Assembly (NCBI GenBank): GCA_963664115.2
Contig: CAXWPJ010000009.1
Span: 1,024,001-1,088,000, forward strand
Source of the DNA: Terriglobia bacterium
Lineage (GTDB): Bacteria > Acidobacteriota > Terriglobia > 20CM-2-55-15
Reading direction: 5' to 3'
DNA length: 64,000 bases
Shown: positions 32,708 to 55,342 of the stretch, in pieces
How the letters are laid out: every line of letters begins with the position of its first letter
Position numbering within the stretch: position 1 is the stretch's first letter
The notes under the pieces: model-generated
The model's database searches: none
Told to the model about the DNA's origin: nothing
What the model saw: only the letters and a program-made list of their open reading frames with translations
Position numbers and translations under genes: made by a program

Positions 32708-34783
32708 ATGTTGAAAAACTCGTTCCGTTTCTTGGTCCCTGGCGCTTTTGGGACTTTGGCGGCACTCCTTCTGCTGACCGGTACACAAGTCGGCATGATC
32801 CTGGGAGAAGCCTCCCCCCCCCAACAGGGTGGGCTATCCCCAGAGACGAGGACTACGATCGAGTTGGAGCGCGCGCCTACACGGGAAATCAAAGATCCTT
32901 ATCCTGGGTTCAGCGCGGTGGCAGTGGATGTGGCCAATGATGAAATCATTCTCCACGACGAAAACAATGCCCAGATCATGGTGTATAGCCGGCTGGACGA
33001 TACACCGGACCGGGCGACCCTGACCGAGCCTAAGCGGATCATCGGAGGGCCGGCGACGAATATCCAGATGAACTGTGGCATTTATGTGGACCCGTTTTCA
33101 GGGGACATCTATTCAGTGAACGGCGACACCGCGGATTGGATGGGCGTGTGGACTCGTGAGCAAAGGGGAAACGTCGCTCCCACCCGGGAGTTGGAGGCTC
33201 CGCATCGCGCTTTCGGCGTCGTGGTGGATGAAGAAGCCCAGGAGCTTTTCATGACCATCCAGCATCCGCCCGCAGTAGTGGTCTGGCCCAAGCTGGCCAA
33301 GGATCAGGATGCCCCCCTCCGCATTCTGGAAGGGGACAAGACCCAATTGGCCTCGGCACAGGGAATTACCATAGACACTGAAAATCAGTGGCTATATGTG
33401 AGCAATGTGGGCGCCACGAGCCGCAACAGCTTCAATCAGGGATGGTCCCGTGCCCTGATTCCCGGCTCTGCGACCTGGGAAATTCCGAACAGAATCTTGG
33501 ACTATATTCCCGGCTCCGGTGAATTCCGCCCCCCTTCGATCACGGTGCATGACCTGAAGGCAAACGGTGACACCGCACCTTTACGCGTGATCCAGGGGCC
33601 GTTGACCCAACTCAACTGGCCGGCACACATCTCGGTGGATGTAGAGAGCGACGAGCTTTTTGTGACCAACCCGGTCACGCATGAAATTCTCGTCTTCCGC
33701 GCCAGCGCCAGCGGCAACGTGGCTCCTATTCGCGTTCTGGGGGGGCCCCGGACGGGACTCAGTCATCCGCACGGCGTGTTTGTGGACCCGAATAACGACG
33801 AGCTCGTTGTGGCTAACTTCGGGAACCATTCGTCTACCGTTTACGCGCAGAACGCATCGGGCGACACCCCACCGCTCCGAACGATCCGGGCGGCTCCTGC
33901 CGACGCACCCGCCCCTATGTTTGGCAACATCGGGTCGGCGACCTACGACAGCATTCGGGATGAGCTTCTGGTGCCCAACTGAGTGGCCTTCCCGTCTATA
34001 GCGGCGTTCGCCAGGTTGGCGGACGGTAGTGTGGAAGCGACTCGAAGGATTGCAGGACAGGCATCGAAGGTTAGTCGTGCGGCGCACGACATTACTTTCG
34101 ATCCGGTCAATGATGAAATTATTGTGGCCAATCCCAGTGCCCAGGCCATCACAACGTTTAGGGGAGGGGCCGATGGAGACGAGGCGCCCCTACGGATCAT
34201 TCAGGGTCCGAACACGAACATCCAGTCACCGGGCTACGGTGTGACCGTAGATCCGGTCAACGACGAACTGTACGTGGTTGAAGGGAGATCGAGAAATACC
34301 TTCGGTGAAAGGCGTGAGGAGTACATTCTCGTGTTCCCCCGGGAAACCAATGGCGACGCTTCACCGATTCGTGTCATCCGGGGCCCGGACACTATGCTGG
34401 AGAACACACAGGCCATAGCGGTCGACCCGGTGCGTAACCTAATCGTCGTGAGCAGCAACAATGGGGCCCTGATCTTCAACCGGACCGACAACGGAAACGT
34501 GAAGCCCCGGGCAATCATCAGGAATCTGGATGGGGGGCGCACGATCAGCTCAAACTTCCGTCTGGTTCCCGAGACAGGCTACATCGTGTCGACAAGCCGC
34601 CGAGGCGGCATCGAGGTGTGGCACATTACTGATAACGGCGACGTCCCTCCGGCATATATCCTGAACAATCCCGACGGTGACATCGGGGGGGGGCGTGTCG
34701 CGCTGAACCCGAATGCGAAAGAGGTCATCGTTGCAGGACGGACAGCCGTGTCTGTCTATTCGTTCCCGGAAATTTTCGAGTAG
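32708..34783 (+). CDS. Secreted NHL-like multi-bladed beta-propeller protein, putative selenoprotein (UGA at 33980-33982, residue 425 of 691)
   Basis: ORFs 32708-33982 and 33983-34783 abut in one frame across TGA (ELLVPN*VAFPSIAAFARLA). The blade repeat G(N/D)xxPxRxIxGxxT continues across the junction. Confidence 0.85.
34005..34025 (+). promoter_or_regulatory. Candidate SECIS hairpin, propeller copy 1
   Basis: CGTTCGCCA-GGT-TGGCGGACG, a 9-bp stem whose loop starts after a 31-nt spacer from the UGA. Confidence 0.75.
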
Positions 34784-34794
34784 GCTGTGCAGGT

Positions 34795-34823
34795 TCGGAG
34801 GCATTCCGACGGAATGCCTCCGA
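34795..34823. terminator. Perfect 13-bp hairpin between convergent genes
   Basis: TCGGAGGCATTCC-GAC-GGAATGCCTCCGA. Confidence 0.6.
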
Positions 34824-34977
34824 CGGCAAACGGAGGCAAGGCCAAAGCGTGATGTGAAGCCGCCGCCGAACTCGATAAAGATTCGCAAGACAAGAAGGTC
34901 GTAGCCTGCGCGACTTGACTCATCAAAGAAGTTCGAAACCCCGGTACCGAGCACTCGAACCCTAAAACCGAGCATTC

Positions 34978-37209
34978 CTAGAAGCTGAAAAGATTCGTCA
35001 GCTTGACGGTAAACGTGCGCTCGACGAGCTGACCGTTTCGCGTGTCCCGGAGGTCGTTATAAACAAGGTAAAGATCGCTCCGGGGATGGTGAATGAAGTT
35101 GAAGCGAATGTTGGAACTCACCTGGTGCGTGTCGGCGTTGTATTGAACGAAGCTATTGAGAAAGACCCGCGGTGAAAATCCGTAAAGCAGGCGCGCGCCG
35201 ACGAGAGTGGTCTGGAACGAGCCGTTCGGCAAACTCACCCGGTTGTGGCTGTAATTCACATTGATGTTCATATGGTAATTTGGCCTGAAACCCACAGCGC
35301 CACCGACGGACTTGCGATGGCCATGCCAGAACTCACCCAAATTGATGTTGACGTTTCCGGTAATCTTCCCTGTCTGGCTGCTGTTGAATCTCAATGAATA
35401 TTGGCGGTATCTGTAATCGCCCGCGTCGATCGCGAGATCCGATGCGTGTCCCCGTCTCAGGGATCGGATCAGAAAAGGGTTCACGAGCCGGTCGAAGGTT
35501 TCGGCGACAGTGAGATTGGCGCTTGCGCCGCTCTGCAACTCGATGCCAACGTTGACCTCCTGGTTACGAGTTGCCACTTTTCCGTTTCCACCTCCGTAGT
35601 AGTCCAGATAGGTCGAAAAGATCAGGTTTCGAACTATCCTGCTTTCTCTCAGGAGAGGCCGCCAGGCAAAATTTCCCGAGTACTGCGTCATGTCTCTGCG
35701 ACGGATGAAGCCCATCTCTGGATTGAAATTAGTTTGGACGGCGTGGTATTCCGCCCCAACGACCCATTCATCGTCGCGCCAGGCGGTCGCAAACTTCCTC
35801 GCCTGATCCTTGCCGGATTTGCCCGGCGTGTCGCTGCGGAGGAGGTAGGAGTCGAACTCCAGCCTTTCATAGAATTGGAAGTGCGCATCGGCGCCGTACA
35901 CGCGGTTGTAGTCGCCGGCTTCGGTGGATTGACGATTGGTGATCAACGAACCGATCCAGGAACTCGTGGAAAAATTCCGTTTGATGCGGCCAACGAGATA
36001 GTTGTTGGATGGTATCCGGAGGTCGTCATCTTTATTAAAGCTTTCGGTTTTCATGGTCAGAAAACCAAGGTCGTATCGTCCGACTTGTCCTGTAACGCGC
36101 GCGCCTCCAACAATGGGGACCGGCGTCCCACCGCTGAGACCGATGGATCGGCTGAAGAACGGAACCAGATTTACCCCACGTCCACTACCACCAAAATTAA
36201 AGGTGCCGGCGTTTTCGAGAAAGAAGTCGCGTTTTTCAGGGAAGAAAAGATTGAAGCGCGTGAGGTTTACCTGCTGCTGATCGACTTCGACCTGCGCGAA
36301 GTCGGTACGGTAGGTGGCGTCGAGAGTCAGCGAAGGTGTGAGGCTGTACTTTAGATCGACGCCGCCATCGTAGTCTGTCGTTGTCTGGATCGGGCCGTCT
36401 GTTTCACGAATCTGCGTGACCCCGGTTATCCCGAACGGCTTCACTTTCAAGTTACGGCCCTGGCGTATCCCTTCCAGGCCCTTGAGTGTGCCGGCCTGGG
36501 AGATTCGGCTCATGCCGTATCGGACGGGGATCGGCGACCAGAAGCTCTGTTCGTTTGTGCGGACAACGAAACGGTTCAGGTTGATGCCCCACTCCTGAGT
36601 GGGGGATTGTGAGAAACGGAGAGTTTTAAAGGGGATTGCGAATTCTGCAATCCAACTTTCGTCGTTCGTGCTGACCTTGACGTCCCACACGCTGTCCCAA
36701 TCATTATTGTATTGACCGTTGTTGGTGATGTGCGATTCGCGCTTCGCGCCCGCGGGATTCGTGCCGAACTGGTACGCGGACCGCCGGTCATGAAGGCTGT
36801 CGATAACCATAGAGACGCCGTCGGATTCCCGGGAAGTGAAGTCTTCTCTGAGAACAACGACATTGTCGGAGGGATCGGAATCGAAGCTGATGAAGCCGAC
36901 GTAGAGATTTTCGTCGTCATAAACGATGCGAACTTCGGTCCGTGCCTCCGACAGCTCTCCGGGCCGCGGGCGTAAGGTGAAGAATTCCGTTACGGGGCTG
37001 GCGAGATCCCATGCCGGCTCGTCCAGACGTCCATCAAGAACGATCTCGTCCGTGGCTCGAACCGCCGTCATGACCTTTTCCAGAGGGATGGTCTCGTAAT
37101 CAATCGCTGTTAGGGGCGAGCCGCTGCCACTTCCGTTTGCCTGCGCCCCGCCATAAGCTGCGACGGCGGACAGGAGGCAGAGTGCCAGTATCCGAGCCGA
37201 TGCATTCAT
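34978..37209 (-). CDS. CBM9-like/DUF5916 domain protein
   Basis: LDGRLDEPAW, YDDENLYV, WIAEFAIPFKTLRF, TDFAQVEVD, NLTRFNLFFPEKRDFFLEN, C-terminal Phe. Confidence 0.88.
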   Translation of the reverse strand: MNASARILALCLLSAVAAYGGAQANGSGSGSPLTAIDYETIPLEKVMTAVRATDEIVLDGRLDEPAWDLASPVTEFFTLRPRPGELSEARTEVRIVYDDENLYVGFISFDSDPSDNVVVLREDFTSRESDGVSMVIDSLHDRRSAYQFGTNPAGAKRESHITNNGQYNNDWDSVWDVKVSTNDESWIAEFAIPFKTLRFSQSPTQEWGINLNRFVVRTNEQSFWSPIPVRYGMSRISQAGTLKGLEGIRQGRNLKVKPFGITGVTQIRETDGPIQTTTDYDGGVDLKYSLTPSLTLDATYRTDFAQVEVDQQQVNLTRFNLFFPEKRDFFLENAGTFNFGGSGRGVNLVPFFSRSIGLSGGTPVPIVGGARVTGQVGRYDLGFLTMKTESFNKDDDLRIPSNNYLVGRIKRNFSTSSWIGSLITNRQSTEAGDYNRVYGADAHFQFYERLEFDSYLLRSDTPGKSGKDQARKFATAWRDDEWVVGAEYHAVQTNFNPEMGFIRRRDMTQYSGNFAWRPLLRESRIVRNLIFSTYLDYYGGGNGKVATRNQEVNVGIELQSGASANLTVAETFDRLVNPFLIRSLRRGHASDLAIDAGDYRYRQYSLRFNSSQTGKITGNVNINLGEFWHGHRKSVGGAVGFRPNYHMNINVNYSHNRVSLPNGSFQTTLVGARLLYGFSPRVFLNSFVQYNADTHQVSSNIRFNFIHHPRSDLYLVYNDLRDTRNGQLVERTFTVKLTNLFSF

Positions 37210-37550
37210 AGACCGCGCATTTTATCAGAGTGGGTGGGTGGAGACGTACTTGTGTCTGAGTTCCTGGTTTGTTTATCGATGAGCCCTCTGCAGGCGGGAG
37301 TTTTTCAAGGATTCGCCCGAGCGGCTTCAGCGATCGTCGAGGGGACACTCCTGATCTTGCGATTGTTAAGTGGAAGCAGTCACAACTACGGCTTTGAGTG
37401 GGTCCTGTTCGCTCGATTGGCAGCGTCCTTGGCTTGGCATCGCTCTACTGGGTCGTTTCAATTTGACTGATCCGTTTCCACGATCTCCTGCCTCCTATAT
37501 TTGAAACACATCAGCAGGAATTTGCCAATCTGACGAACTTGGAAATAAGT

Positions 37551-37645
37551 TTGACCGGGCTAATATGAATGAGATATGGTACGCGCATTATGAATGAGAT
37601 TATGAATGAGATATAGTACGCATTATGAATGAGATATAGTACGCG
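37551..37645 (+). repeat. Promoter region with four copies of TATGAATGAGAT
   Basis: Copies at 37564, 37589, 37601 and 37624; three continue as AT(G/A)GTACGC. TTGACC at 37551. Confidence 0.85.
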
Positions 37646-37752
37646 TTGTATCTGATTGCAGTAGTGTAAATCGGTTGCTCAATGATTCGTTTTGAGGCTC
37701 TTTTATTGGGTAGATCAAGGCCCCGTTAAGTGGGCCTGTGGAGGAAACGATT

Positions 37753-40700
37753 ATGAAGGTTGCGATGAGTGGAATGAAATGTCTGTTTGGGATAATTCTG
37801 ATCCTGGGGCTTGGCGGCGCTACAGCCTGGGCTCAGACGACCGGAGAGATCAGTGGTACGGTGACGGACACAAGCGGAGCTCTGCTACCGGGTGTCGAGG
37901 TGAGCGTGACCCAAACCGATACGGGTGCTACGCGAAACGCCGTGTCGAACGAGGTCGGAGGGTATGTGTTTACGAACCTGCCGTTGGGCCCGTATGAGCT
38001 GGAAGGGGCCTTGCCTGGATTCCAGACCTATGTGCAGACCGGCATTCTGTTACAGGTTGGCAGCGCGCCACGGATCAATGTCGTAATGGAGGTGGGTCAG
38101 GTCACCCAAACCATAGAGGTCCAGGCCAATAGGGTGATGGTAGAAACCCGGACATTGGGTGTGGCTTCCATCATGGAAAATGAACGCATTCTGGAACTGC
38201 CGCTGAACGGACGCCAGGTCGAGTCCCTGATCACGCTGGCCGGCGGCGCGGTTTCCGACGGCGGCCGCAGCAACCGGGCCCTGGGCGGAGAAGAGATTTC
38301 CGTGGCCGGCAGCTCGGTATACGCGGTGGACTATACCCTCGACGGCGCGAATCACATGAACTACACCAGTTCGGCGGGTCATGCCATGCCGTTTCCCGAC
38401 GCGCTGGAAGAGTTCAATGTGAGGACAAGCGGCCTGAGTGCTGAGAACGCACGGGCAGTCACGGTCGGAGCGGTGACCAAATCGGGTACCAACCAGTTCC
38501 ATGGCAGCGCGTTCGAATTCGTGCGCAACGACGCATTGAACGCGAGGGAATATTTCTCGCCGACGAACAGTACGCTCAAGCGCAACCAGTTCGGCGGCAC
38601 GTTCGGCGGGCCGATCATAGGGGACAAGCTGTTCTTCTTTGCCGCCGTCCAGTTCACCACCCTGCGTTCGGACCCGGCAAACGAGGTGGACATTCTGCCC
38701 ACTGAGGAAATGAAGCTGGGCGACTTCAGGAACTTCGGTTCAGAAGACTGCGAGGATCGAAATCTGAGAGACATAACGAATTGGGGCGGGCCGGACATAG
38801 ATTTCGACTTCAATGGCAACAACACGGTGGACCCGGCTCTGTTCAGCCCGGCTGCGATGAGTATCATCAACACGCTGCCCAGGCCGCAAGATCAGAAATG
38901 CGGCGAGTTCACCTACGGCATTTTGGAAGTCGATAACGCCTCCCAGTACGTGGGCCGGGTCGACTATACGGTCAGCGACCGTCACTCGGTGTTCGGACGC
39001 TACAACACATTCGGCAACCGCGCGCCGAGCCCGTTTTTAGCGGACCAGTCAAACATCCTGCTCGCGGACGTCCGCACGCTCGACAATCTGGGCCAGTACC
39101 TGGCGTTGGGCGATACCTATCTGTTTGGCGACAGCACGGTCAATTCATTCCGTTTCACCTACAACCGGGTGAAGGTCGGCCGTGACGGCACGACGTTCTA
39201 TTCCCCGTGTGACCATGGCGTCAATATGTACTGCGGGTACGTGCCGAAAACTTCGAACATTTCGGTCCGGGGCGGATTCGAGTTGAGCCAGACGTCGGCG
39301 CCGCTCGATTTTCTGTTCTCGCACGCCTTCGACGTCAACAACGATCTGAGCTTCATCATGGGAGACCACCAGATCACGGTCGGTGGAGGCATTAACCGCA
39401 CCTTACACCAGGCCAAGACCAGTTCGCGAGCCGTCGGCGACTTCGACTTTCGTACCGGAGGTTCCCGCGAAGCCGTGGCCAACTTCATGGTCGGATTCGT
39501 GGACCGGTTTATCCAGGGCGCGTTGAGCACCCACAACCCGATGCGATGGTTCCCCAGGGTGTATGCGACCGACACCTGGAGAGTGACGCCGACGCTCACC
39601 TTGAACTACGGGCTACGGTGGGATCCCCAGATGCCCGAGCACCGGTTGAACGACTCCGGTTTCAGTTGGACTCGGGAGAGATTCGACGCAGGCTTCCAAA
39701 GCAGTGTGTTCAACAACTCCGCTCCGGGTTTCTTCTACTTTGGCGATTCCGGGTTCCCCGACAACTCAGGGGGCATCGAGCCGATATGGAATCAGTTCGC
39801 ACCCCGAATCGGTTTGGCGTGGGATATGTTCGGCGACGGCAGCACTTCGCTTCGGACGTCCTACAGCTACAACTATGAAGTCGTACCCATGGAATGGGCC
39901 AACGAGATGGGCAACGCGCCGCCGTTCGGCAACCGTGTCGAGGTCAACCAGGTGCTTTTCGACGATCCCTGGAGGGGCACCTTCAATCCCCATCCCTTCG
40001 ATCTGGATGCAAACGTACCTTTCGGGAGCGGCGGAAATTACCCCATCCTGCCGACGGACTTTTCCCAACCCGATACCTCGTCGTGGAACCTGAGCATCCA
40101 GCGACAGCTTCCGGGCAACACGCTCGTGTCGGCGACCTATGTGGGTAACATCACAAACCACTTCATGGGCGTGCGGCAGATCAACCCGGCAGTCTTTTTC
40201 CCGGGTGAGACCGATGCGAACGGCAACTGCTCTGCCCAAGGCTTTACGATCAAAGCCGATTCCCGGGGCCGTTCAGGCCGCACCTGCTCGGTGTTCGGGA
40301 ACACGCAACAGCGGCGCGTTTTGAACCTGTTGCGTCCTGGAACCGATACCGGACTCCAGGGTTCCCTGCTGCAACTGGGAGCGATGACGGATCGGAGCCC
40401 GGAGGGCACCCAGCGCTACGCCGGCCTGATCACGAGTGTCCAAACCCGCCCCTCGGAACGTCTCAACTTCAATGCGAACTACACCTGGGGCCACTGCATC
40501 GGCGACTACACGTCGGGCAGTCCGACGGCCGGCCCGAACACAGACCAGACCCAATTGAAACCTCTGGATCGGCGGTTTGATTGGGGCGACTGCAATCTGG
40601 ACCGGCGGCACATATTCAATTTGACATCGGTGTTGGGTACGCCCGATTTCGCGAATAACACGACTCGCATGCTGCTGGGCAACTGGAGGTTAGCAGTCAT

Positions 40701-41151
40701 CTACAGAGCGTCTTCGGGCGAGAAGTCGTCGATCTTTACCTCCGACGACGACCTATCATTGACCGGGACCGCGACAGGCCACCAGCGCGGCAATCAGATA
40801 CTCCCCAGCGTTTATCTGAACAAGAGCGCCGGTCCCAACGAACGGTACCTCGATCCGGACGCTGTCGCGGACCCGGCTGAAGGCGCGTTTGGGAATTTAG
40901 GACGCAACAGCGTGGTGGGGCCCCGGCAATGGGACTTCGATGTCGCCCTGTCGCGAGTCTTCAACGTCGGCGAAACCTCGAGGATTGAGTTTCGAGCCGA
41001 GGCGTATAACCTCACGAACAGCTTCCGGGCGACACCGGGCGACGTAGATTTCTTTACGATCGACGATAGGAACTTCGGCCGATTCAACGCTGCAAACGGG
41101 AGTGCCCGGTCTCCACGAATCCTGCAGGGTGCCTTGAAGTTCGTCTTCTAG
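37753..41151 (+). CDS. Oar-like TonB-dependent receptor
   Basis: Signal peptide, GTVTDTSGALLPGVEV, LPLNGRQ, PFPDALEEF, C-terminal GALKFVF. Confidence 0.92.
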   Translation: MKVAMSGMKCLFGIILILGLGGATAWAQTTGEISGTVTDTSGALLPGVEVSVTQTDTGATRNAVSNEVGGYVFTNLPLGPYELEGALPGFQTYVQTGILLQVGSAPRINVVMEVGQVTQTIEVQANRVMVETRTLGVASIMENERILELPLNGRQVESLITLAGGAVSDGGRSNRALGGEEISVAGSSVYAVDYTLDGANHMNYTSSAGHAMPFPDALEEFNVRTSGLSAENARAVTVGAVTKSGTNQFHGSAFEFVRNDALNAREYFSPTNSTLKRNQFGGTFGGPIIGDKLFFFAAVQFTTLRSDPANEVDILPTEEMKLGDFRNFGSEDCEDRNLRDITNWGGPDIDFDFNGNNTVDPALFSPAAMSIINTLPRPQDQKCGEFTYGILEVDNASQYVGRVDYTVSDRHSVFGRYNTFGNRAPSPFLADQSNILLADVRTLDNLGQYLALGDTYLFGDSTVNSFRFTYNRVKVGRDGTTFYSPCDHGVNMYCGYVPKTSNISVRGGFELSQTSAPLDFLFSHAFDVNNDLSFIMGDHQITVGGGINRTLHQAKTSSRAVGDFDFRTGGSREAVANFMVGFVDRFIQGALSTHNPMRWFPRVYATDTWRVTPTLTLNYGLRWDPQMPEHRLNDSGFSWTRERFDAGFQSSVFNNSAPGFFYFGDSGFPDNSGGIEPIWNQFAPRIGLAWDMFGDGSTSLRTSYSYNYEVVPMEWANEMGNAPPFGNRVEVNQVLFDDPWRGTFNPHPFDLDANVPFGSGGNYPILPTDFSQPDTSSWNLSIQRQLPGNTLVSATYVGNITNHFMGVRQINPAVFFPGETDANGNCSAQGFTIKADSRGRSGRTCSVFGNTQQRRVLNLLRPGTDTGLQGSLLQLGAMTDRSPEGTQRYAGLITSVQTRPSERLNFNANYTWGHCIGDYTSGSPTAGPNTDQTQLKPLDRRFDWGDCNLDRRHIFNLTSVLGTPDFANNTTRMLLGNWRLAVIYRASSGEKSSIFTSDDDLSLTGTATGHQRGNQILPSVYLNKSAGPNERYLDPDAVADPAEGAFGNLGRNSVVGPRQWDFDVALSRVFNVGETSRIEFRAEAYNLTNSFRATPGDVDFFTIDDRNFGRFNAANGSARSPRILQGALKFVF

Positions 41152-41178
41152 TCGGCGGTAGCTGCAATCGATCCCGAT

Positions 41179-41234
41179 AAAGGGACGGATTCCTCTCCTC
41201 ATCGTGCTGTTCGAGGAGGGGGCCGTCCCTTTTT
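41179..41234 (+). terminator. Intrinsic terminator, possibly bidirectional
   Basis: AAAGGGACGGATTCCTCTCCTC...GAGGAGGGGGCCGTCCCTTTTT, a long stem followed by a U-tract. Confidence 0.7.
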
Positions 41235-41390
41235 GTGCCTGTGGGAGGCTGGGTCGCGTACGAGGGGATGGCCTGGGACTGTTCCCGGTGTTTAGAACTG
41301 GGACCGCATCCCGATTTCAAATAGGCAAGAGGCCTGCCCCACGATAACACCGCGCCCACCGGCTATTCCGGGAGCCGGGCGATCAGGTCG

Positions 41391-41522
41391 TTACGGCTTT
41401 ACGCAGCACACACACGAGCAGTGGCACCGGCTTGGATCGGCCTCGCACTTGCAGGAACAACCTTCCGGGCCACAGTCGCAATTTTCGCAGCACTTACATT
41501 GGCACTGATATTCGGTGGGCAT
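41391..41522 (-). CDS. Metallothionein-like small Cys-rich protein (43 aa, 14 Cys)
   Basis: AGGAG RBS 7 nt before ATG. Sequence MPTEYQCQCKCCENCDCGPEGCSCKCEADPSRCHCSCVCCVKP. Confidence 0.7.
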   Translation of the reverse strand: MPTEYQCQCKCCENCDCGPEGCSCKCEADPSRCHCSCVCCVKP

Positions 41523-42057: not shown

Positions 42058-44274
42058 ATGAGATTAATAAGGAAAAGAAAAGGCGCCCTGAGCATTGTGT
42101 CGCTCGCGGTGATCGCGATCGTGGGTGTCTGGGCTGGTGCCGTTGGTGAGGCGGCCCGAGAGCTGGCCCCGGAGACATCTCGATTGGTTGCCATCCATGA
42201 GATCTCTGATTTAGAGGCCTGCGCGTGGGACCAGCCTGGGGCTGGCTATTCCGATCTGGGGCCGTCCTTGCAGCCCGTAAATCTCTTGGCCGCGCTGGGG
42301 CCGCGATCTGCCTTACCTCTGATGGGATCGGTCGCACAAACGCCGGCGGAAATGCAGCGGGGACGCAACAGAGAGCCGTTCGAGGCACAGAGGAACGGGA
42401 CTGCAACGCGTGTGCGCAGGATCGCGGATACCTATCCGACGTACACCGCCGTGGGTATTAATCTCCAGACCAATGAAGTCATCCTTCAGGATAACAATTT
42501 GTGGTCGACCCGAATCTTCAACCGCTTGGACAACACCCCGCCGGACGCCGATTTAACCGAAGCAAAGAAGGTTATTCAAGGCGAACAGACCCATATCCAG
42601 TTCAACAACGGCATCTACATCGATCCGGGGAATGGGGACATCTATTCGGTCGAATCGGACACGGGCGACAGGATGGTTGTGTTTGCTCACGACGCGAGAG
42701 GCAATGCCGCACCCAAGCGCATTCTGAACACGCCGCATCGTGTGTATAGCATTGCCGTCGACGAAGAGCGGGAAGAGCTGTACGTGACGGTGGAGTACCC
42801 GCCCGAGGTGGTTGTGTATCGCAAGGACGCCTCCGGTGACGAGCAGCCGCTTCGCCGAATCGTGGGTCAACGCACAAAGCTTGAGGGTCCCCACGGTATC
42901 GCCGTCGATGTCGAGAACCAACTCTTGTACGTCAATACCTGGGGCCAGGCGACCAATTTCAGGAATCCCGGTACGGGCCGGTTCAATCCACCGGCCATCA
43001 ACATCTATCCGCTTGACGCCAGCGGGGACACACCGCCGGTGCGAAGGATTCAAGGAGACCGGACCCAAATGAACTGGCCCGGGAATATGGCGTTGAACCC
43101 CGATAATGGGGATCTGTATGTGGCCAATGACGTGGAACACTCGATTCTCGTCTTCACGGGACTGGCTTACGTCCGGGGCAACGTACCGCCGACACGAGTC
43201 ATCAAGGGAGACCAGACGGCTCTGGTTTACCCGACGGGTGTGGCTATCGATAGGACGAATCAGGAGTTGTGGGTTTCCAATCTGGGCAACGCCTCGGCCA
43301 CGGCGTATCCGTTGATGGCTGAGGGAAACGTCGAGCCCCTGCGCACGATCCGCAGTGCGCCTCGGGAACATCAATCGTTGACTTTCGGCCGCACCGCGGC
43401 GGTGGCCTATGACCCCAACCGGCAAGAAATCCTGATACCGAACTGAGTGAACCACCCGCAGATTGCGGCTTTCGCCAGGCTGGCGGAAGAGAACGCGACG
43501 CCCACACGCAAATTGGAAGGTCAACTGACGCGGCTCGGTCGGACCATGCACGATCTGTCCTACGACGCGATTCACGACGAAATTGTTGTGAGCAGTCCTT
43601 TCGCCCAGGCGATCCTGACATTCCGGGGCGGGGCTGACGGAGAGGAAGCGCCCCTTCGCATCATCCAGGGACCGCGTACCCAGATCGTCAGTGAGCGCGG
43701 CCTCGATAAGGTCACCATTGATCCGATCAATGAGGAAATCTTCATCGCCACTAGCCTCGATCAGATTCTGGTATTTGAACGGGAAGCGAACGGGGACGTG
43801 GCTCCCATCCGGGTTCTGGGTGGGCCTGACACCCGATTCACCGGGCGCCCCACCGTCCGTGTCGATCCGGCCAATGATCTCTTGTTGGTTTCGGCTCCGG
43901 GGCGCGACGAGGGGCTGTTGATTTTTGATCGGACCGCGAGCGGCAATACCCCACCACGGGCCGTGATCCCGGGGCCTTCCGGCAATCAATTTGAGATCTA
44001 CAACGACTTGATCATTACCCACAGGGTGGACACTATTTACGCCTGGAGCATCCATGATACCGGCGAGGATGTTCTTCCGATCTGGAAAATCCCAGCGCCT
44101 CTGGGCGACCGAGCCGAGACAACCAACCAACGGGGCATAGCCCTGGATCCTCTGCACAAAGAGGTCATCATTGGAACGGCGGCCGGAAATCAGGTTATGG
44201 TATTTTCCGTTCCGGAATTGTTCGATGGACCTGGCCCTTCCTCGTTGAATACGGACACGGCCGAACTTCGCTGA
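42058..44274 (+). CDS. Secreted beta-propeller protein, putative selenoprotein (UGA at 43444-43446, residue 463 of 738)
   Basis: ORFs 42058-43446 and 43447-44274 abut in frame (EILIPN*VNHPQIAAFARLA); same repeat family as copy 1. Confidence 0.85.
43469..43489 (+). promoter_or_regulatory. Candidate SECIS hairpin, propeller copy 2
   Basis: CTTTCGCCA-GGC-TGGCGGAAG, a 9-bp stem with the same 31-nt spacer. Confidence 0.75.
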
Positions 44275-44284
44275 CCCTCCGGAT

Positions 44285-44311
44285 TGGCGGCGCTTCCCGA
44301 AGGCGCCGCCA
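44285..44311 (+). terminator. GC-rich hairpin after propeller copy 2
   Basis: TGGCGGCGCTT-CCCG-AAGGCGCCGCCA. Confidence 0.45.
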
Positions 44312-44565
44312 GACCTAGATTCCCGCCCTGTCCACCCACACCTATTTCGGCAGCTCCACGCTTCGGTTTCCGAGCCGATCTGCGGTCTGCCTCCGACGGA
44401 ATGACTATCATCGCGCCCCCCTGTCCACGCGGCAATCCATTGCAAATCGCGGAACCCGGAGGCACCCGTCGATCGGGGATTGTTTTCGATGGGGAACCCC
44501 GTTTCCCGGGTTTATAATCATCTCACTAGCCGTCCAGCGATTCAGGCACCACAGGAGCGCATAGC

Positions 44566-47007
44566 ATGGGCCTATTCCGACCGGTTTTAATTTGTCTTCT
44601 GCTTCCCGGGGGCGCGCTTGGACAATTGTTGACCGAGAATCCGCTCGACGCCGTAAAGAATCAGGTTGATGAGGTGCTCCGAGACGCAGGGGATCCATTT
44701 ACGGCAGAACAGGAGAGACGGATAACGCTTCTACTCGAAGATCAGCGTCGGGCGTCGGAAGAGTTGTTTGGCGAGATCATGGATTTCAGCAGCGGCGTGC
44801 CGGAGGGAGCCGACCAAGACCGAGCGATCGCCGCTATTCAATGGATTCATGATGCATTCAGGAGGCGGCTTTCCGAGTACTTGACCCCCTCTCAGAGAGC
44901 CGCCTGGGAAGCGTTCGAATCAAGCGGAGTCGCCATCGGTGCTGAGATCGAAGGGGCCGTCCCAGGCGCCGATACTGCTCGGATTCAGGAGATTCGGGTC
45001 ACGAATAATCCCTTCAGCGCGGAAAGCGACGTCACATTTGCGAGCAGATGGCCGGTCGAGACACTGCGAACCGAGATTATCGAACGCGGAGGGGCTGGCG
45101 CATTCCACGGCAACCTATCCATGGCATTTCAGGATGACGTTTTGAACGCCCGGAATCCGGCCGCCACCAACAAACCCTCCTATCGCGAAAGGACGATCAG
45201 CGGGAACATCAGCGGCCCGGTAATCCGAAACAGGCTCACGGCCACCCTGAGCCTGAGGGACAATCGGCGGGAGAACGTCGGTACGGTCAACGCGCTGACT
45301 CTGGACGGACCGTTTACTTTGGGTATCACCCGTCCGAACGTCAACAGATCTTACGCCGGGAGGGGGATTTTGCAGATCGGCGAATCGCAGTCGCTCCACT
45401 TCGGCGTCGAGTTCGGCCAGGGCAGCCGCGAGAATCTGGATATGGGGGACTTTACACTGCCCGAGCGGGGTTCCAATGCGGATAGCCATAGCACCGACTT
45501 GGACTTGCGGCATCTTTGGATCTTGTCGGAACGATCCGTTTACGAAACCCGTTTTTCGTGGCGGAAGGACCGCAGTGAAACCCGTCCAATTACGACGGGC
45601 GTGGCCATAAACGTCTTGGATGCGTTCAACGGCGGAGGCGGTCAGCTTCGTGAGGAGACCGATGGCGCGACATATGAGTTCGGAAACCTGCTCTACCGCA
45701 CCGGCGATCGACTGACGTTGAGGGTGGGAATGAACGGTATATACCGCACCGAGGTTTTGCTGCATGAGGCGAACTTTCTGGGCCTCTTTACTTTCTCGGA
45801 CCTGGAAAGTTTCCGGAACGGGCGGCCGCGACAATACGATGTCAACCGGGGTAACCCACTGCTTGAAATGGATCAGCTCGACCTGGGTTTCTTCGTCCAG
45901 AATGACTTTCAGCTTACGAGCCGATTCACGTTGATGTTCGGCACACGTTATCAGTGGCAGACGAACCTCAGCAACAAACATGATGTTGATCCGCGCCTGA
46001 ATTTCGCGTATGCGATCGGGAGTTCCACGGTCCTTCGAGGCGGGGCCGGGATATTTCACACCCGCTTCCCACTGGCCGGCTTTGAAGAGCTGGCTCGATT
46101 CGACGGCACGAGACAGTTTGGACTCCGAGTCTCCGAACCCGGATGGCCCGACCCTTTTCAGTCGGGCGATGCCGAGATCGTTCCGCCGCCCTCCCGTTAT
46201 GTCGCGACCGCGGACCTTACGACAGGGTATTTCATCACTCAGAACATCGCGATCGAGCAGAACCTACCGGGTAATCTTTTCTTGACCCTCAGCTACGACC
46301 GCTCGCGATCTATGGGCAACCGGCGGATTCGAAACATCAATACACCGCTTCCCGGCACCATTACCGAGGAAAGTCCGGACGGTATCAAGCCGTTCCCGAA
46401 CGAGGGCGACATCATCGAGCGGAGGTCGACCGGTGTGACCGTCTTCCAGAACGTCAGAATCCATGCCCGGCAGCGGTTCAGCGTCTTTAACGTTGTTGCC
46501 AACTACAGATTCAATTGGGGATATAGCGATGGGAGGGGCTCCTTTCCGGCCTCAGATGCCTATGATTTAGGGGCGGACTGGGGACGGTCGGAACAGTTTC
46601 CGGAACATGACTTTACGGCAGGTTTTAACTCCCGGCTACCGTTGGACGTGTACCTGACGACAACCGTCTCCGCCCGGTCAGGCGATATCTACACCATCAC
46701 GACCGGAACGGATGACAATCGAGACGGATTTTTCACGGACCGGCCTGTCGGCGAACCCTTCAACGGAGCAACCGGACCCAATTACTTCGCCCTCGGTTTC
46801 AACCTCTCGAAGGCGTTTCAGCTCGGCCAGGCCACGGGCATTGGAGCCACAGGCCCGCGACTGAGTATTTTCGCGAACGTGAACAATGCCTTTAACAGGA
46901 CGAATCTCCGCGCGCCCAGCGGCGTTATGACCTCCCGCAACTTTGGACGTTCGACGAGCGCGTACGCTCCCCGGGGAATCGAGGTAGGAATGCGATTCCA
47001 GTTCTAA
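44566..47007 (+). CDS. TonB-receptor-like outer-membrane barrel with a helical N-terminal domain (paralog of 29705-32356)
   Basis: Signal peptide, FTAEQERRI, LNARNP, FTLPERGS, DPRLNFAY, C-terminal MRFQF. Confidence 0.8.
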   Translation: MGLFRPVLICLLLPGGALGQLLTENPLDAVKNQVDEVLRDAGDPFTAEQERRITLLLEDQRRASEELFGEIMDFSSGVPEGADQDRAIAAIQWIHDAFRRRLSEYLTPSQRAAWEAFESSGVAIGAEIEGAVPGADTARIQEIRVTNNPFSAESDVTFASRWPVETLRTEIIERGGAGAFHGNLSMAFQDDVLNARNPAATNKPSYRERTISGNISGPVIRNRLTATLSLRDNRRENVGTVNALTLDGPFTLGITRPNVNRSYAGRGILQIGESQSLHFGVEFGQGSRENLDMGDFTLPERGSNADSHSTDLDLRHLWILSERSVYETRFSWRKDRSETRPITTGVAINVLDAFNGGGGQLREETDGATYEFGNLLYRTGDRLTLRVGMNGIYRTEVLLHEANFLGLFTFSDLESFRNGRPRQYDVNRGNPLLEMDQLDLGFFVQNDFQLTSRFTLMFGTRYQWQTNLSNKHDVDPRLNFAYAIGSSTVLRGGAGIFHTRFPLAGFEELARFDGTRQFGLRVSEPGWPDPFQSGDAEIVPPPSRYVATADLTTGYFITQNIAIEQNLPGNLFLTLSYDRSRSMGNRRIRNINTPLPGTITEESPDGIKPFPNEGDIIERRSTGVTVFQNVRIHARQRFSVFNVVANYRFNWGYSDGRGSFPASDAYDLGADWGRSEQFPEHDFTAGFNSRLPLDVYLTTTVSARSGDIYTITTGTDDNRDGFFTDRPVGEPFNGATGPNYFALGFNLSKAFQLGQATGIGATGPRLSIFANVNNAFNRTNLRAPSGVMTSRNFGRSTSAYAPRGIEVGMRFQF

Positions 47008-47230
47008 CGCCCTCCAGCTCGTCAGCCGCCACGATTGGCTTCGGGATCCGGACAATTTTCCGATTAAGAACACAGGTTTTCAGCGTAAAACCGGCTGCTG
47101 GGTCCCCGACAAAAAGTTGTGCGGTCCCCACCCCTGTTATAAGATCTCCACCAACTTCCCGAGTCCTAAAGCCTATAATCTGCCGGGCTAAGACACTGCG
47201 TGCTTGCACAAAGGAGTCTTGATGGGCCGC

Positions 47231-48799: not shown

Positions 48800-49074
48800 G
48801 AGGAAGATCGTATCTTAAAACATTTTGAATTCCTCATGAGATATTACGTGGAGAAGAGGCGGCCATGGCCGACCATGAACGAAACGGAAACCTACCCTGG
48901 GTTCCGCATTCCTGACACCTGGGTGAACCACGAATGGGGCGACGGCTCCACCTTGAGTCGGTAGATGATTGCACCCAGATCCACGTACAGACGCGCAACA
49001 GCGTGCACCCGATCACCGCAATCGATGGGTTTCAACGGATGGTTGTTGGATGGCGGGGACGAGCGTTCCCCCTC

Positions 49075-49112
49075 AAAAAAAAGCGGCCTTCCCCTTTCTC
49101 GAGGAAGGCCGC
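49075..49112 (-). terminator. Intrinsic terminator of the minus-strand receptor gene
   Basis: GCGGCCTTCC...GGAAGGCCGC stem next to an 8-A run (U-tract on the minus strand). Confidence 0.75.
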
Positions 49113-49148
49113 AACTGTTACTTCAACTCCTTGATCGACAGATCGCGA

Positions 49149-52100
49149 TCAGAATTTGTACTTCAACGCGAACTGCAAGATCCGAGGATCCGCGGCCGAG
49201 GTGATCTGGCCAAAATCATTATCGTCGATAATATTCTCCGGGTTGCCCAGATTGACGTTGTTCGGCAAGTTAAAAGCCTCGGCTCGGATCTCGAGCGTCT
49301 GGTTCTCCCCGATGGCGAACGATCGAGTCAGTCCGACGTCGAGCGTAAAGATTCCCGGACCCCGGATGCTGTTGCGGCCAAGGTTCCCGTAGGTGCCACG
49401 CGCAGGTGTGGCGAAGGCGGCCGGGTTCAGCCACTGGTCGGCACTCTTGTTGGCCATGAAAACGTTGTCCATCAGTTGGTGCGCCCTCTGGTCGTCCTCA
49501 TCCGTATTCGCTCGGTCGCAATCGCAACCGACATCGAAAAAGTCGCCGGACAGGACCTTGAGAATGCCCGAGGCCCGCCAGCCGCCGGCCAGCACCCTCA
49601 GTGTGGAATTGGCGAACTGCGGCGTCTCGTACACCGTCGACATGTTGAACGCGTGCCGCCGGTCCAGAATGTTGTTGCCGCGGTTAGCCGTGCGCCGGCT
49701 GAGGTGCGGGCGCCCCGAACTGGTGGAATTGAAGCTGGTCTGATCGCCGATGCTGTGGGACCAGGTGTAGTTCATCCGGAGATTCATGCCCGCACTCTGC
49801 CGCTCGAGCGAGAGCCACATCGCGTTGTAGCTGCCCGTGCCCCCGTCGTCGAACTTATTGAGGGCGGCGAGCCCGGACTCTGGATTGGCGCGGGTCAGCT
49901 CCCGCACGCCGTCGATCTCCGGATTGGCCTCCCGGATGCCCAACAGGTGGATCGAGGTATTGCCGATGTAGTTCGCCGTCGCCATCCACTCGCGACCGAT
50001 CTGGCGCTGAAGACTGAGGTTCCATTGGTGAACGTAGGGCGACTTATAGTTCTCATCGAGGGTCATGAACAGCGCGTTTCGAGGGAAAACTAAGTCCGGG
50101 GTCGCAATGACAGGTATAGGGTTGCCTCCCGGATTCCTGATCCACGGGTCATCCAGTCCGCCGATGTACCGGTTCCACGTAATACGCGGGGTGAACGGCG
50201 TGAGGTTCCGCAGCCCGTTGAACTGGTATGTGTGCGGGTAGTCGTAGAAGACCCCATAGGCGGCGCGGATGCTCGTGCGGCCGTCGCCTGACACGTCCCA
50301 CGCCATGCCCACGCGGGGCGCAAAATGGCCCCACAGGTTGTTGCTGATCTGGGCATTGTCCGGCATTCCCTCATCGCCCGGGCCCGGTGGGCGGTCGCCG
50401 CCAGAGTACAGGTACCCCACCGGAGCGTTCACAAACACGGTGCTCTGGCGACCCTGGTCAAACCAGTCCCTCCGGAACCGCCCGGTGCGCTTGTCATTCC
50501 GCACCTGCGGCGTGAAGGGTTCCCAGCGGAGGCCGAGATTGAGCGTGAACTGATTATTCACCCTCCAGATGTCCTGCGCGTACAGCGATTGAAAGTCCTG
50601 CCGGGTATACCAGGTCGCGAGATCTTCCTGCCGGAAGCGGTCCACGTAACCGATCATGAAATCGGCCATCGACAGCCCGGTGCCCCGGGTTCGGAAGCGC
50701 CAATTGCCGGGGGAGGAGCTGCTGGACGAAATATACATGAGCTGGCGCATGTAAGATCCTCCGAACGCGAACTGGTGGTCGCCCTTCACCCAACCAATGT
50801 CGTTGGAGACTTCATAGCCGGTCGAGTTCGTGTACGACGGAGTGGCCTGCTGTGAGAACGTGTCGAACGCGCCTCGGACACTCGCCTCGGACATCGATGA
50901 TCATCATCTTCGGGTAAGGAGCCGCCGGAGAGGTGAAATCCTGGACCCCCACCTCCCCGGGCGTGAAAACGTCGAAGAACGATTTGGTGTTGGCTGTTCG
51001 AATCAGGGTCACCCGAAAAGAATTGATCAGATTGTTGTTGATCGACCACGTATCGCCGAACACGCCCGACTGGTATTTCCGGGCCCAATTCGGTTCATCC
51101 ACAGCTACGGGAATCGTCCCGTTGTAGTCGCTCGGACTCGTCAGCCTGTGAATCGAATAACGGAAAAACATCGAGTGGCTGTACTCACCTGAAAAGTCCG
51201 CGCGCGTTACCCACTGGTGCTCGTCTTCGTTTTCTCTTTCACTGAATTCGATTCTGCCGCACGGATCGGTTGTCTGCGGGAGCCGGGCGGCGATGTTTTT
51301 CGCCACCGGAGAGAGCAGCGCCGGGTCGATCTGGTTGTCAACGAAAGGGAAATCAGCCCTGATGTCTCTCCTGCCTCTCAAGGTGACCCCACGTCCCGCT
51401 CCCCGGCATTCGTCACCTGCGATCCGCCTGAAGTCACCGTTGAGCACCTCCGCGGTCGGAACGAAAGCGAAAGTGGTCGACGGCGCGGAACGCTTCATGG
51501 TCCGCTGATAGCCGGTGAAAAAGAACAGCCGGTCCCCGACAATCGGCCCCCCGAAGGTGCCGCCAAACTGGTTGCGCTTCAGCGAGTCGCGTTCGTTTGC
51601 GAACGTATTGCGGGCGTTGAATGCTTCGTTGCGCACGAATTCAAACGCGCTACCGTGAAACTGGTTTGTTCCCGACTTCGTCACTACGCTCACCAAGCCC
51701 GCCGAATGCTGGCCGTGCCGCGCGGGAATGGCACTGGTTTCGACTTTGAACTCCTGGAGTGCATCCGGAAACGGCAACGGCATGTTGAGGTTGTTGAACG
51801 GATCGTTGTGCGTTCCACCGTCCATCCGGTACGACAGGCCGTTATCCTGCCCACCACCGACCGAAACGGCGATGGTCGGATAGTTCCGGCTCGTGCCGCG
51901 GGTGGGTGAGGTGATAGCGGCCCCCGAAAGCGCGATCAGTTCGGTCGCATTACGTCCGTTGAGGGGAAGTTCCAGGACGCGCGCGTTGTCTAAGATCTGG
52001 CCAATGCCGGTGTTCCGGGTCTCCACCATTAGAGCGTCGGCCTGGACCTCGATGGTCTGGGCGAACTGTCCGACCTCCAGGACGACATTCGATGACAGGA

Positions 52101-52438
52101 CTGGCGCCCACCTGCAGCACGATTCCGGTTTGGAGAAAGGTACTGAAACCTGGAAGTGAAGCTTCCAGCGTATAGGGTCCCAGCGCGAGGTTCGGCAGGA
52201 TAAAGGATCCTGTTTCGTTCGAGACCGCCGTCCGAACCGTGCCCCTGTCAATGTTGGTTGTGGTGACTTCCACTCCGGGCAGCAAGGCCCCGGTCGGATC
52301 CGTAATCGTTCCGTTGATCTGGGCGGTCTCCTGGGCCCATGCTCCTGTCGACGTCAGTAGGACGATGAGAAGCCCTGCCAGCAGTCGGCACGCAACGATC
52401 CTACCGCCCCGTTCTTCGACTTTCTTAGCATTTTTCAT
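49149..52438 (-). pseudogene. Oar-like TonB-dependent receptor interrupted by two frameshifts
   Basis: Three consecutive ORF pieces (52438-51950, 52251-50812, 50894-49149) align end to end with the intact paralogs. One extra base at about 52090 and a 13-nt duplication at 50870-50893. Confidence 0.85.
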
Positions 52439-52644
52439 AGCTGTCCTCCATTTCCATCATTAGCTACCGCCTGCTTTCTTCCTGGGCGGCTTCCGGATCT
52501 CGCGAAGCAGCCACGAGGGATCAAAGCGAAACCCTCAACCTTCAGGAAAGCACCAAACATCCCACCCGGTTCCGTGGTGGATCCATTCGTCCAGACAACA
52601 AATTTTCGGATTTCTGAGCGGACGATAACAATGCGGACCCGCTC

Positions 52645-52870
52645 TGTCAAGAGGGTACTGACTCATATGTCGAGACCACAAAATCTGTCAGGTTCTTGTA
52701 GCAAATGGCGTGTCTGGTCCTGAAAGAGCCGGGGTCTGGATAGAGGTTAGCGAATGCCGGTGTATCCAGCCCGGAAACTGGAGCGGGCGATGAAGGTCAG
52801 AGAGGTGATTATACGAGCGATGAGCGGACAGAACATCGACTATCGACCCGATGTCGGTTTTCTATTGACA
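52645..52870 (+). mobile_element. Internally deleted ISNCY/IS1202-like insertion sequence remnant
   Basis: Ends TGTCAAGAG...CTATTGACA form an imperfect inverted repeat. It encodes ERAMKVREVIIRAM, which resembles the N-terminus of ISNCY transposases (recognised from memory). Confidence 0.55.
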
Positions 52871-53020
52871 GCCGGGCAACCGAAGTATAAACGTAACCGT
52901 GAAGCGTTCCGTCAAGGGGCCCGCATGGTTGATTTTCCACGAAGCGATTCGCTGCGGTTGCGACAAGATTGGCGTTTTTGCCGATCTGACTGCACCGCAG
53001 TTTTCTAAAGAGGGGACTTC

Positions 53021-55342
53021 ATGCACTTAACGAAAAGCAAATCTGTAATCGCAATTTTGGCGGTCACGCTGATCGGGATTGCGGGTGTCTGGGCCGGGCT
53101 TGTTCCGGAGTCGGCACCGGGAGTTGTTCCGGAGGCGACCTCGGGAACCGCCGAGAGCGTCGCTCGATTGGTTTCCGTCCAGGAATTCCCCCAACTCGAC
53201 GCCTGCGCATGGGATACCCCTGCCAGCTTCAGTTCGGGTCCGGCGCCATCGTTGAGTTCGGAAAATCTGCTCGGCGCCTTGGAGCAACGGGGGGGCGCTT
53301 CGTTTCTGACGGCTTCCCTGAGGCAACAAGCTCCGGTAATGCAGCAAGGGGGACGCGGGGGACCTGCAGAATTCGATTCCGACAGGCAGGGGACCTCGAC
53401 CCATCTGCGCACGCTGGCGGATACCTATCCCACCTTTACCGCTGTCGGCGTCAATACCAACACCAATGAAGTGATCCTGCAGGACAACAATCTATGGTCC
53501 GCCTACATCTTCAACCGGCTGGATAACACACCGCCGCGCGCGCGATTCAGCGAGCCGAAGCGGATCATCCAGGGGCCTGAGACCGAGATGCAGTTCAACA
53601 ACGGCCTCTACATCGATCCGGTGAACGGGGACATGTATTCGGTCGAATCGGACACGGGCGACAAGATGGTGGTGTTTGCCCAGGACGCCGGGGGTAACGT
53701 CGCGCCCAAGCGCATCCTGAACACACCCCATCGAGTGTACAGCGTTGCCGTCGACGAAGTGAGGGAGGAGCTCTACATCACCGTGGAGTACCCGCCCGAG
53801 GTGGTCGTGTACAACAAGAATGCCGAGGGGGATGAACTGCCGCTGCGGCGCATCGTCGGGGACAACACCCAGCTGGAAACACCCCACGGGATCGCCGTCG
53901 ACTCGAATCTCGGGCTCTTGTACGTGAACAACTGGGGCCATACCACGGATTTTGGAGATTCACGAGGTGGGACGACGGGTTACGAAGATAATGGCAGGAA
54001 TATTTCTCCTGTTGGCGATCCCTCTACGGGCCGGTTCAATCCGACTTCGATCACGATCTATTCGATCGAGGCGAACGGGGACGTGGCACCGATACGTGTG
54101 ATTGAAGGGGACCGGACGCAGTTGAATTGGCCTGGAAACATGACCGTGAACCAGGAGACCGGGGACCTGTATGTTGCCAATGACATGGATCACTCGATCC
54201 TGGTTTTCACAGGGTTGGACACCGCCGACGGCAACGTGGCGCCGACGCGGGTCATCAAGGGTGATCAGACCAAGCTGGTCCACCCGACCGGAGTGGCTGT
54301 GGACACCGTGAACCAGGAGTTGTGGGTGTCCAACCTGGGTAACGCATCGGGGGTGGCGTTTCCGCTCGAGGCCGATGGGAACGTGGCGCCCTTGCGGGTC
54401 GTACGTGCGGCGCCGGAGGAACACCAGTCGTTGATTTTCGGTCGGACCGCGGCGGTGACGTATGACCCCAACCGGGAAGAAATCCTGGTACCGAACTGAG
54501 TGAACCATCCGCAGGTTGCGGCCTTCGCCAGGTTGGCGGAGGAGAACGCGGTTCCGACACGTGTGATTGAAGGTGTGGCTTCACGGCTCGGCCGGACAAT
54601 GCATGATGTGATGTTCGATGCGATTCACGATGAACTCGTCGTGACGAGTCCATTCGCCCAGGCGATTTTGACATTCCGGGGCGATGCGGACGGCGAAGAA
54701 GCCCCCCTGCGCATCATCCAGGGTCCAAATACTCAGATCGTGAGCGAACGGGGTTTGGATAAAGTCACCATCGACCCGGTCAACAACGAGATCCTGATCG
54801 CGACCAACCACGGAGACGATCGAGACCCACTCGGAGCCATTCTGGTATTTCCGCGGGAAGCGGACGGCGATGTCGCTCCGATCCGGGTTCTAAGCGGGCC
54901 CGCCACCCAGTTCGGGGGCGGCCGTCCCTCGATGCGGGTCGACAACAAGAACGACCTGTTGCTCGTCGCTGAGAGTGGCGGTATTTTGATCTTTGATAGA
55001 ACCGCGAGCGGGAATACGCCGCCGGTTGGATGGATTCCAGGACCCAGCGGCAACCAGTTCGACGTCTACAACAATCTGATCATCACGCTGAGGGGCGACT
55101 ACCTCTACGCCTGGGACATCCACACCAGGGGCGAGGGCATCCGTCCGGTCTGGAAGATTTCAACTCCGCTGGGAGCGCGAGCCGCCCAGACGGGACTTGT
55201 TCTGGATCCTGTTCACGAGGAGGTCATCGTCGCGACCGGAGCCGGAAACCAGATTCTGGTGTTTCACGTTCCCGAAATATTCGCGGAACGCAGTGAGGTG
55301 CCACGCGCCTCGACACCATTCCGCTTCTCAGCTGAGGAGTAG
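53021..55342 (+). CDS. Secreted beta-propeller protein, putative selenoprotein (UGA at 54497-54499, residue 493 of 773)
   Basis: ORFs 53021-54499 and 54500-55342 abut in frame (EILVPN*VNHPQVAAFARLA); close paralog of copy 2. Confidence 0.85.
54522..54542 (+). promoter_or_regulatory. Candidate SECIS hairpin, propeller copy 3
   Basis: CCTTCGCCA-GGT-TGGCGGAGG, a 9-bp stem with the same 31-nt spacer. Confidence 0.75.

Follow-up and report, generated by a model that had tools for sequence, protein, structure and literature searches.

A 64,000-nucleotide stretch of the genome of a Terriglobia bacterium of the Acidobacteriota (GenBank assembly GCA_963664115.2, contig CAXWPJ010000009.1, positions 1,024,001 to 1,088,000; hereafter the window) raises the question of how three related genes for putatively exported β-propeller proteins, each interrupted by an in-frame TGA at the same place, are read. 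The list of open reading frames (ORFs) of the window holds three pairs of adjoining in-frame ORFs, which part at the TGAs at 33980, 43444, and 54497, in each case directly after an Asn codon (the preceding residues are PN), directly before GTG, and with no gap. The initial annotation had proposed that these splits conceal three selenoproteins; re-reading of the sequence bore out the PN-TGA-GTG junctions, the kept frame, and the zero gap, and reproduced read-through lengths of 691, 738, and 773 residues, with the UGA as residues 425, 463, and 493. The present study suggests that the UGA is very probably read as selenocysteine (Sec) at all three loci, each of which would then be a single gene. 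Taken as a whole, the evidence makes it very probable that the product is a Sec-containing, likely exported protein predicted to fold into 12 propeller repeats, with Sec the likely catalytic nucleophile beside an invariant His and an invariant Arg. The features in question are as follows.

32708..34783, + strand: paralog A, 691 residues with the UGA read, with a hydrophobic export segment at about residues 9-23, 12 propeller repeats, and predicted Sec425 (ORF read-through, repeat analysis, model)
33980..33982, + strand: putative Sec codon TGA of A (sequence; covering contig)
33992..34004, + strand: proximal hairpin (H1) of A, +10 to +22, with 4 pairs in A (covariation, alignment)
34005..34025, + strand: main hairpin (H2) of the candidate selenocysteine insertion sequence (SECIS) of A, +23 to +43, with a GGU loop, a 31-nucleotide spacer, and -12.7 kcal/mol (folding, covariation)
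34076..34087, + strand: codons of Arg457 and His460 of A (R-x-x-H), putative partners of Sec425 (109-sequence conservation)
42058..44274, + strand: paralog B, 738 residues, predicted Sec463; its genuine stop is likewise TGA (ORF read-through)
43444-43446, + strand: putative Sec codon of B (sequence)
43456-43468, + strand: H1 of B (folding)
43469-43489, + strand: H2 of B, -11.1 kcal/mol (folding)
53021..55342, + strand: paralog C, 773 residues, predicted Sec493; a copy on contig C2 is 96.5% identical (ORF read-through)
54497-54499, + strand: putative Sec codon of C (sequence; covering contigs)
54509-54521, + strand: H1 of C (folding)
54522-54542, + strand: H2 of C, -13.5 kcal/mol (folding)

The interrupted column is conserved far beyond chance. 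Specifically, tblastn searches of the source genome (4.9 Mb, 97% complete) identified 13 full-length paralogs with pairwise identities of 38-97% (median 44%), each with a single stop, which is always TGA and always in the same column after Asn; ten of these paralogs, together with the two-hairpin SECIS and the invariant His and Arg described below, are additions to the first reading of the sequence. Protein searches returned 2,636 hits, of which the best 120 were inspected. Of these, 81 stop at precisely the residue that precedes the junction (among them what is essentially the window's own product), while 39 run through it uninterrupted. The expectation that Cys would stand opposite the UGA in homologs was realized in 37 of the 39, the remaining two being a Trp-containing homolog and a distant off-register match. 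Among the best 150 representatives after clustering at 50%, 24 span the column, with Cys in 18 and the other six being generic repeat proteins; the Cys homologs include archaeal and Binataceae records. A search of the ESM Atlas returned split halves only, all from Acidobacteriota. At the DNA level, TAA, TAG, or gaps at the junction were looked for and none was found in 52 distinct contexts (51 TGA and one TGC). Loci found later, after 22 off-register matches to other repeats had been dropped, brought the totals to 71 TGA and 7 Cys contexts; of 15 matches from a scan for the Cys pattern, 5 belong to the family. Cys copies occur within genomes that also hold UGA copies and, in a tree of 116 rows masked at the Sec column and at the residues encoded by the hairpins, many Cys tips are nested within Sec clades, with 18 Sec/Cys changes required and 17 of them forced by strong branches. 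Because this tree was built with FastTree only and drew long-branch warnings, we claim no ancestral or root state.

An assembly error is ruled out, since contigs from other public runs carry the same codon: an RNA-library contig of another public run covers the codon of A (33949-34213) with no other letter, and two contigs of other public runs cover 54497 unchanged, possibly deriving from the near-identical C2 twin. In the two RNA libraries, for which the evidence consists of contigs, genes A and C are covered, gene B is uncovered, and 44255-51470 is without cover in both runs; the cover of A and C is a weak hint of transcription, not proof.

The second line of evidence is an RNA element that accompanies the UGA. 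H2 is conserved 3′ of every UGA, with a GGY loop, a 31-nucleotide spacer, and 8-9 bp, and it satisfies every one of the four constraints that PMC13188914 sets out for a bacterial SECIS, with energies of -11.1 to -13.5 kcal/mol in A-C. In 67 of the 71 UGA contexts the loop spells its Arg as AGG, a codon used for 53 of the 509 Arg residues found elsewhere in the same genes. Within H2, pair 27:39 (third position) is paired in 71/71 contexts (CG 57, TA 12, TG 2) and pair 24:42 occurs as four Watson-Crick types; H1 covaries too. Across 68 aligned sequences (alignment A2, from which one of 69 reference sequences was excluded as a non-family match), 93.7% of cells in the two-hairpin structure are paired, compared with 33-50% in slid controls, and 65 two-sided changes were observed versus 20 in shuffles, with none of 500 shuffles reaching the observed number. 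Under a synonymous-codon null, 41 of the 71 UGA contexts are individually significant at p <= 0.05. The seven Cys copies keep 4-5 of the 7 core pairs, versus 6-7 in 69 of 71 UGA copies; their mean hairpin energy is -4.5 kcal/mol, versus -11.4 kcal/mol in UGA copies; and H1 pair 11:21 is kept in one of the seven, versus 71/71. Thus, the element decays in Cys copies, as predicted for an RNA signal tied to the UGA.

The source genome has the machinery that such a signal would serve. selA, selB, and selD all score above curated profile cut-offs, selD itself carrying an in-frame TGA, and a 98-nucleotide tRNA with a TCA anticodon scores 71.6 bits against the Rfam tRNA-Sec model, so that the complete set, including selC, is present, as the initial annotation had asked to be checked. 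From established bacterial Sec decoding, the SelB-GTP-Sec-tRNA complex would bind the GGY loop of H2 and decode the UGA, and H1 may set the spacing. Beyond the source genome, the family was found in 11 of 41 genomes in a search of relatives and in one of a further 400 genomes sampled evenly across the phylum, a patchy distribution. Counted by the junction pattern over 30 handles, which represent 29 distinct genomes and include one match, in G015, that looks off-target, copies number 28 in G001, 27 in G004, 20 in G002, 15 each in G038 and G452, 13 in the source genome (G000), and 1-14 in the remaining genomes. Sec genes accompany the UGA copies in every one of the 29 distinct genomes: 24 have selB (in one below the cut-off), and the other five have selA plus selD, two of these five with a clear tRNA-Sec. 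Three congeners of the source genome carry 20-28 copies, and a fourth, G003 (95% complete, selB present), has no match to the family, possibly reflecting wholesale loss or gain.

The read-through products also make sense as proteins. A hydrophobic 15-residue segment lies at the N terminus of 13/13 paralogs (Kyte-Doolittle 2.1-2.9) and no downstream half has one (0/13; 0.1-1.1), in agreement with the claim that only the upstream halves carry an export signal. It is followed by 12 repeats of ~49 residues, and Pfam NHL (PF01436) matches the three proteins at 27.3, 32.6, and 30.9 bits against a gathering cut-off of 20. An AlphaFold model of the fused chain, built from a 39-sequence alignment, is predicted with high confidence (predicted local distance difference test, pLDDT, 93; predicted template modeling score, pTM, 0.92) and shows four-stranded repeats running on without a break over the junction; it places the UGA residue between strands E370-375 (repeat 7) and E381-386, consistent with the mid-blade position suggested initially. 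Foldseek searches with the model return tandem propellers whose whole-chain matches are poor (TM 0.27-0.39, root-mean-square deviation 14-25), indicating that there is no close solved relative, and these matches do not discriminate between two rings of six and one ring of twelve. Sequence searches of the Protein Data Bank yield nothing beyond fragments of NHL, lactonase, and LRP proteins, none stronger than E 1e-7, the best solved relatives being NHL domains (matches to Brat, TRIM2/3, and LRP6).

Two other accounts of the junction have to be weighed. The UGA might be read as a different residue, with a suppressor tRNA inserting Cys or Trp or with the genetic code reassigned. A few bacteria do have Cys tRNAs that read UGA, and the single Trp homolog would fit such a reading. 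It is nevertheless highly improbable, as long ORFs in the source genome end in TGA more often than in any other stop (470/969), the sole TCA-anticodon tRNA found there is the Sec-type one, and the hairpin fits the bacterial SECIS model. Slightly less probable still is that the UGA is a true stop separating two coupled genes or marking a pseudogene, with re-initiation at the following GTG: GTG does follow in 60 of the 71 contexts and databases do annotate the halves as separate proteins, but the other 11 contexts have GTC, GTA, or CTG with the frame still open, TAA and TAG never appear, uninterrupted homologs have Cys, the break falls within a modeled repeat between two strands, the downstream half is without an export signal, and the hairpin is kept only with UGA.

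Several observations weigh against decoding of the UGA as Sec or soften the evidence for it. The Trp in the column belongs to P0064, where it is either a code-4 call or a true TGG. Cys copies are confirmed in DNA in only 7 cases, the others being protein records. The sequences are related, so the covariation counts overstate independent events, and a single clade supplies most of the T-A changes at pair 27:39. Finally, selB is present in 37 of the 41 relatives irrespective of the family, and co-occurrence with the Sec machinery is therefore consistent with Sec, not discriminating. Collectively, the UGA/Cys column, the covarying hairpins, and the Sec machinery nonetheless support, at the level of sequence, the original proposal of exported propeller proteins with probably one Sec each.

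The source genome also contains further TGA-plus-hairpin candidates, at C2:768686, C5:131175, C5:202820, C2:786105, C9:74840, and C9:453331. These six comprise an S-U-G-C-C protein and selD among others; from their motifs we take two to be deiodinase-like, one OsmC-like, and one peroxiredoxin-like. In addition, a gene of DUF3179, a catalogued selenoprotein family, lies just downstream of the C2 propeller paralog (L084:11044, contig C2) and has an F-U-V-V-C motif with an in-frame TGA and a hairpin downstream.

If the residue is Sec, what would it do? The invariant positions that are not structural cluster in repeats 7-8 (R394, R417, Sec/Cys425, P429, R457, and H460 in 109 sequences), with R457 and H460 100% conserved; of four distant homologs inspected, three keep R-x-x-H or R-x-H and the fourth keeps the Arg alone. 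In the model, Sec comes after strand b of repeat 7, whereas R457 and H460 lie ahead of strand a of repeat 8. We presume from general propeller topology that the b-c loop of repeat 7 adjoins the d-a loop entering repeat 8 on one face, so that in the exported full-length protein Sec425 would sit beside Arg457 and His460 on one face of the propeller. The Sec motif is N-U-V-x-H-P: UxxC, CxxU, and a conserved resolving Cys were sought in the family and none was found, position +3 being His, Gln, or Val, and the only other frequent Cys, C123, is present in 49-50% of sequences and absent from B and C. Given that there is no second conserved Cys, we deem selenolate-imidazolium chemistry the likeliest: Sec425 and His460 would form the ion pair, Arg457 would hold an anionic substrate, and the selenolate would attack small organic compounds brought to the periplasm via neighboring TonB-type receptors, with the many paralogs covering different substrates. 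Provided that Sec is inserted, we give this assignment of nucleophile and partners an even chance.

Two different roles compete with this chemistry. In the first, Sec would be a metal ligand together with His460, and perhaps His428, in a metal-dependent oxidase or hydrolase, comparable to the copper site of SELENBP1. His460 is invariant, His428, His218, and His166 occur in 63%, 88%, and 82% of the 109 sequences, and propeller enzymes can bind copper through His residues (PMC10362175). On the other hand, only one His is invariant, the same loops contain no invariant Asp or Glu, the invariant Arg would disfavor a cation site, and no SBP56 Pfam match appears at E 0.001; a metal site is thus the less likely role, though the better placed of the two. 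Somewhat less likely again is a role in binding or scavenging, in which the exported protein would act together with TonB-type receptors and its Sec would trap a soft metal, an electrophile, or a peroxide. The linkage to receptor-like genes (below), the frequent use of NHL-type propellers as binding scaffolds, exemplified by the relatives named above, and the lack of both a resolving Cys and, in 29 loci with listed ORFs, a conserved reductase partner are all in keeping with a scavenger, but a single Sec/Cys with an invariant His and Arg, retained as far out as archaeal homologs, looks catalytic, the site has been kept through at least 18 Sec/Cys switches, and a trap would require recycling.

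The gene neighborhood bears on the proposed Sec-His-Arg chemistry through the substrate. The genes flanking A and B, identified by Pfam, provide context as follows.

29615..32356, + strand: TonB-receptor-like outer-membrane barrel (PF25183), directly upstream of A; context, not a demonstrated partner
34978..37209, - strand: CBM9-like/DUF5916 exported protein, convergent with A; context
37738..41151, + strand: TonB-receptor-like barrel with a carboxypeptidase-regulatory-like domain, upstream of B; context
44566..47007, + strand: TonB-receptor-like barrel, downstream of B; context

In the source genome, a TonB-type receptor gene lies within 8 kb of 9 of the 13 paralogs, compared with 12% of random positions, and DUF5916 lies near 5 of 13, compared with 8.5%. 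DUF6152 shows no enrichment near the paralogs (4/13 versus 26% of random positions), and xanthine-dehydrogenase-family genes are near one of the 13 only. Near the copies of other genomes are transport genes (TonB-type receptors, tricarboxylate and DASS transporters) and enzymes (Rieske/LigXa oxygenases, UbiD, HpaB, tannase, amidohydrolases, and metallo-beta-lactamase folds), and unrelated housekeeping genes lie there too. This leans toward the import and degradation of organic acids, aromatic or otherwise, but is suggestive only. Two points tell against reading much function into this setting. Seven paralogs of the source genome share one 100-kb region, so the receptor enrichment does not represent 13 independent cases. 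Moreover, no conserved operon or reductase partner was seen among ORFs picked by eye (43 of 101 at the other paralogs of the source genome and 72 of 152 non-family ORFs, 29 loci), and without a fixed operon the substrate is a guess.

The surroundings hold several further observations. A TonB-receptor-like gene at 49149-52438 (- strand) lies in three frames; a 13-nucleotide stretch near 50867 is absent from contigs of two other runs, and one frame break may therefore be strain- or assembly-specific. Convergent with C, 55449-63062 (- strand) encodes molybdoenzyme subunits of the xanthine-dehydrogenase family: two large subunits, one FAD subunit, and one 2Fe-2S subunit, the last of which matches a Tat signal weakly. 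A cassette of DUF1549/DUF1553, DUF1501, and formylglycine-enzyme-like genes occurs at 17847-22051 and at L078:972-5326, both copies within ~70 kb and near propeller paralogs. Other expansions in the source genome are DUF6152 (~100 loci by tblastn, one at 26562-26933 of the window), TonB-receptor-like barrels (38), and DUF5916 (25).

The initial annotation had not recognized the fold among characterized selenoprotein families, and our searches agree. Table 1 of PMC13188914 lists 119 prokaryotic families with no propeller, NHL, YncE, or lactonase domain; the available text of BSepDB (PMC13326102) and deep-Sep (PMC12013277) contains no such terms; NCBIfam 20.0, searched with 7 proteins at E 0.1, has no matching selenoprotein model; and the listings and abstract openings returned by a full-text literature search contain no description of the family. 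YncE and 6-phosphogluconolactonase labels were rejected, with 18-28 bits against NCBIfam cut-offs of 370-400. Hundreds of database entries are nevertheless split in two and labeled YncE or lactonase, and a major phylum of soils and the sea therefore needs its annotation corrected. Most bacterial selenoproteins in the catalogues are redox proteins, either thioredoxin-like or with a metal cofactor. The largest total listed for any organism is 63 selenoprotein genes (BSepDB, PMC13326102) and the single Acidobacteriota genome of the deep-Sep test set has 3 selenoproteins (PMC12013277), while one propeller family alone would account for 13-28 copies in some genomes. We tentatively suggest, at somewhat less than an even chance, that this is the first β-propeller selenoenzyme family and perhaps the most expanded in bacteria, its exported enzymes combining Sec-His-Arg chemistry outside thiol redox with a two-hairpin SECIS; some Acidobacteriota would then be selenoprotein-rich organisms that have gone unnoticed as such. 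The 18 or more Sec/Cys switches offer natural pairs for comparing selenium with sulfur at one site, and with the Cys-form homologs the chemistry can be tested without having to express Sec proteins.

Compared with known systems, the propeller genes share with the SelB-read coding-region SECIS of the Escherichia coli fdhF type (bacterial SECIS model in PMC13188914) the in-frame UGA, the Cys homologs, selA/B/C/D, and a hairpin with a small G-initiated loop 16-37 nucleotides downstream; they differ in having two tandem covarying hairpins, not one stem-loop, and in reaching the paralog numbers given above. With the 119 catalogued families they have in common a single Sec and Sec/Cys pairing, and a few exported members are listed there as well (in Table 1, a TonB-dependent receptor of the FCYXU type and the ABC substrate-binding SaoB/SaoX). 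Most rows carry UxxC/CxxU redox motifs, in contrast to N-U-V-x-H-P here. The repeat type is that of the NHL propellers (PF01436; Brat, TRIM2/3, and NHLRC2), with Pfam NHL in all three proteins, yet there are 12 repeats and the solved folds superpose poorly. The nearest selenium-linked propeller is SELENBP1, or methanethiol oxidase, which also has a conserved His and Cys; according to PMC10362175, it has seven blades, is copper-dependent, and binds selenium after translation and dispensably. Membership in that family was rejected on the lack of an SBP56 match and on the count of 12 repeats versus seven blades, and here the selenium would be encoded. Thus, the family, its fold, its location, and its copy number appear to be new, while the decoding mechanism would be one already known, with a two-hairpin twist.

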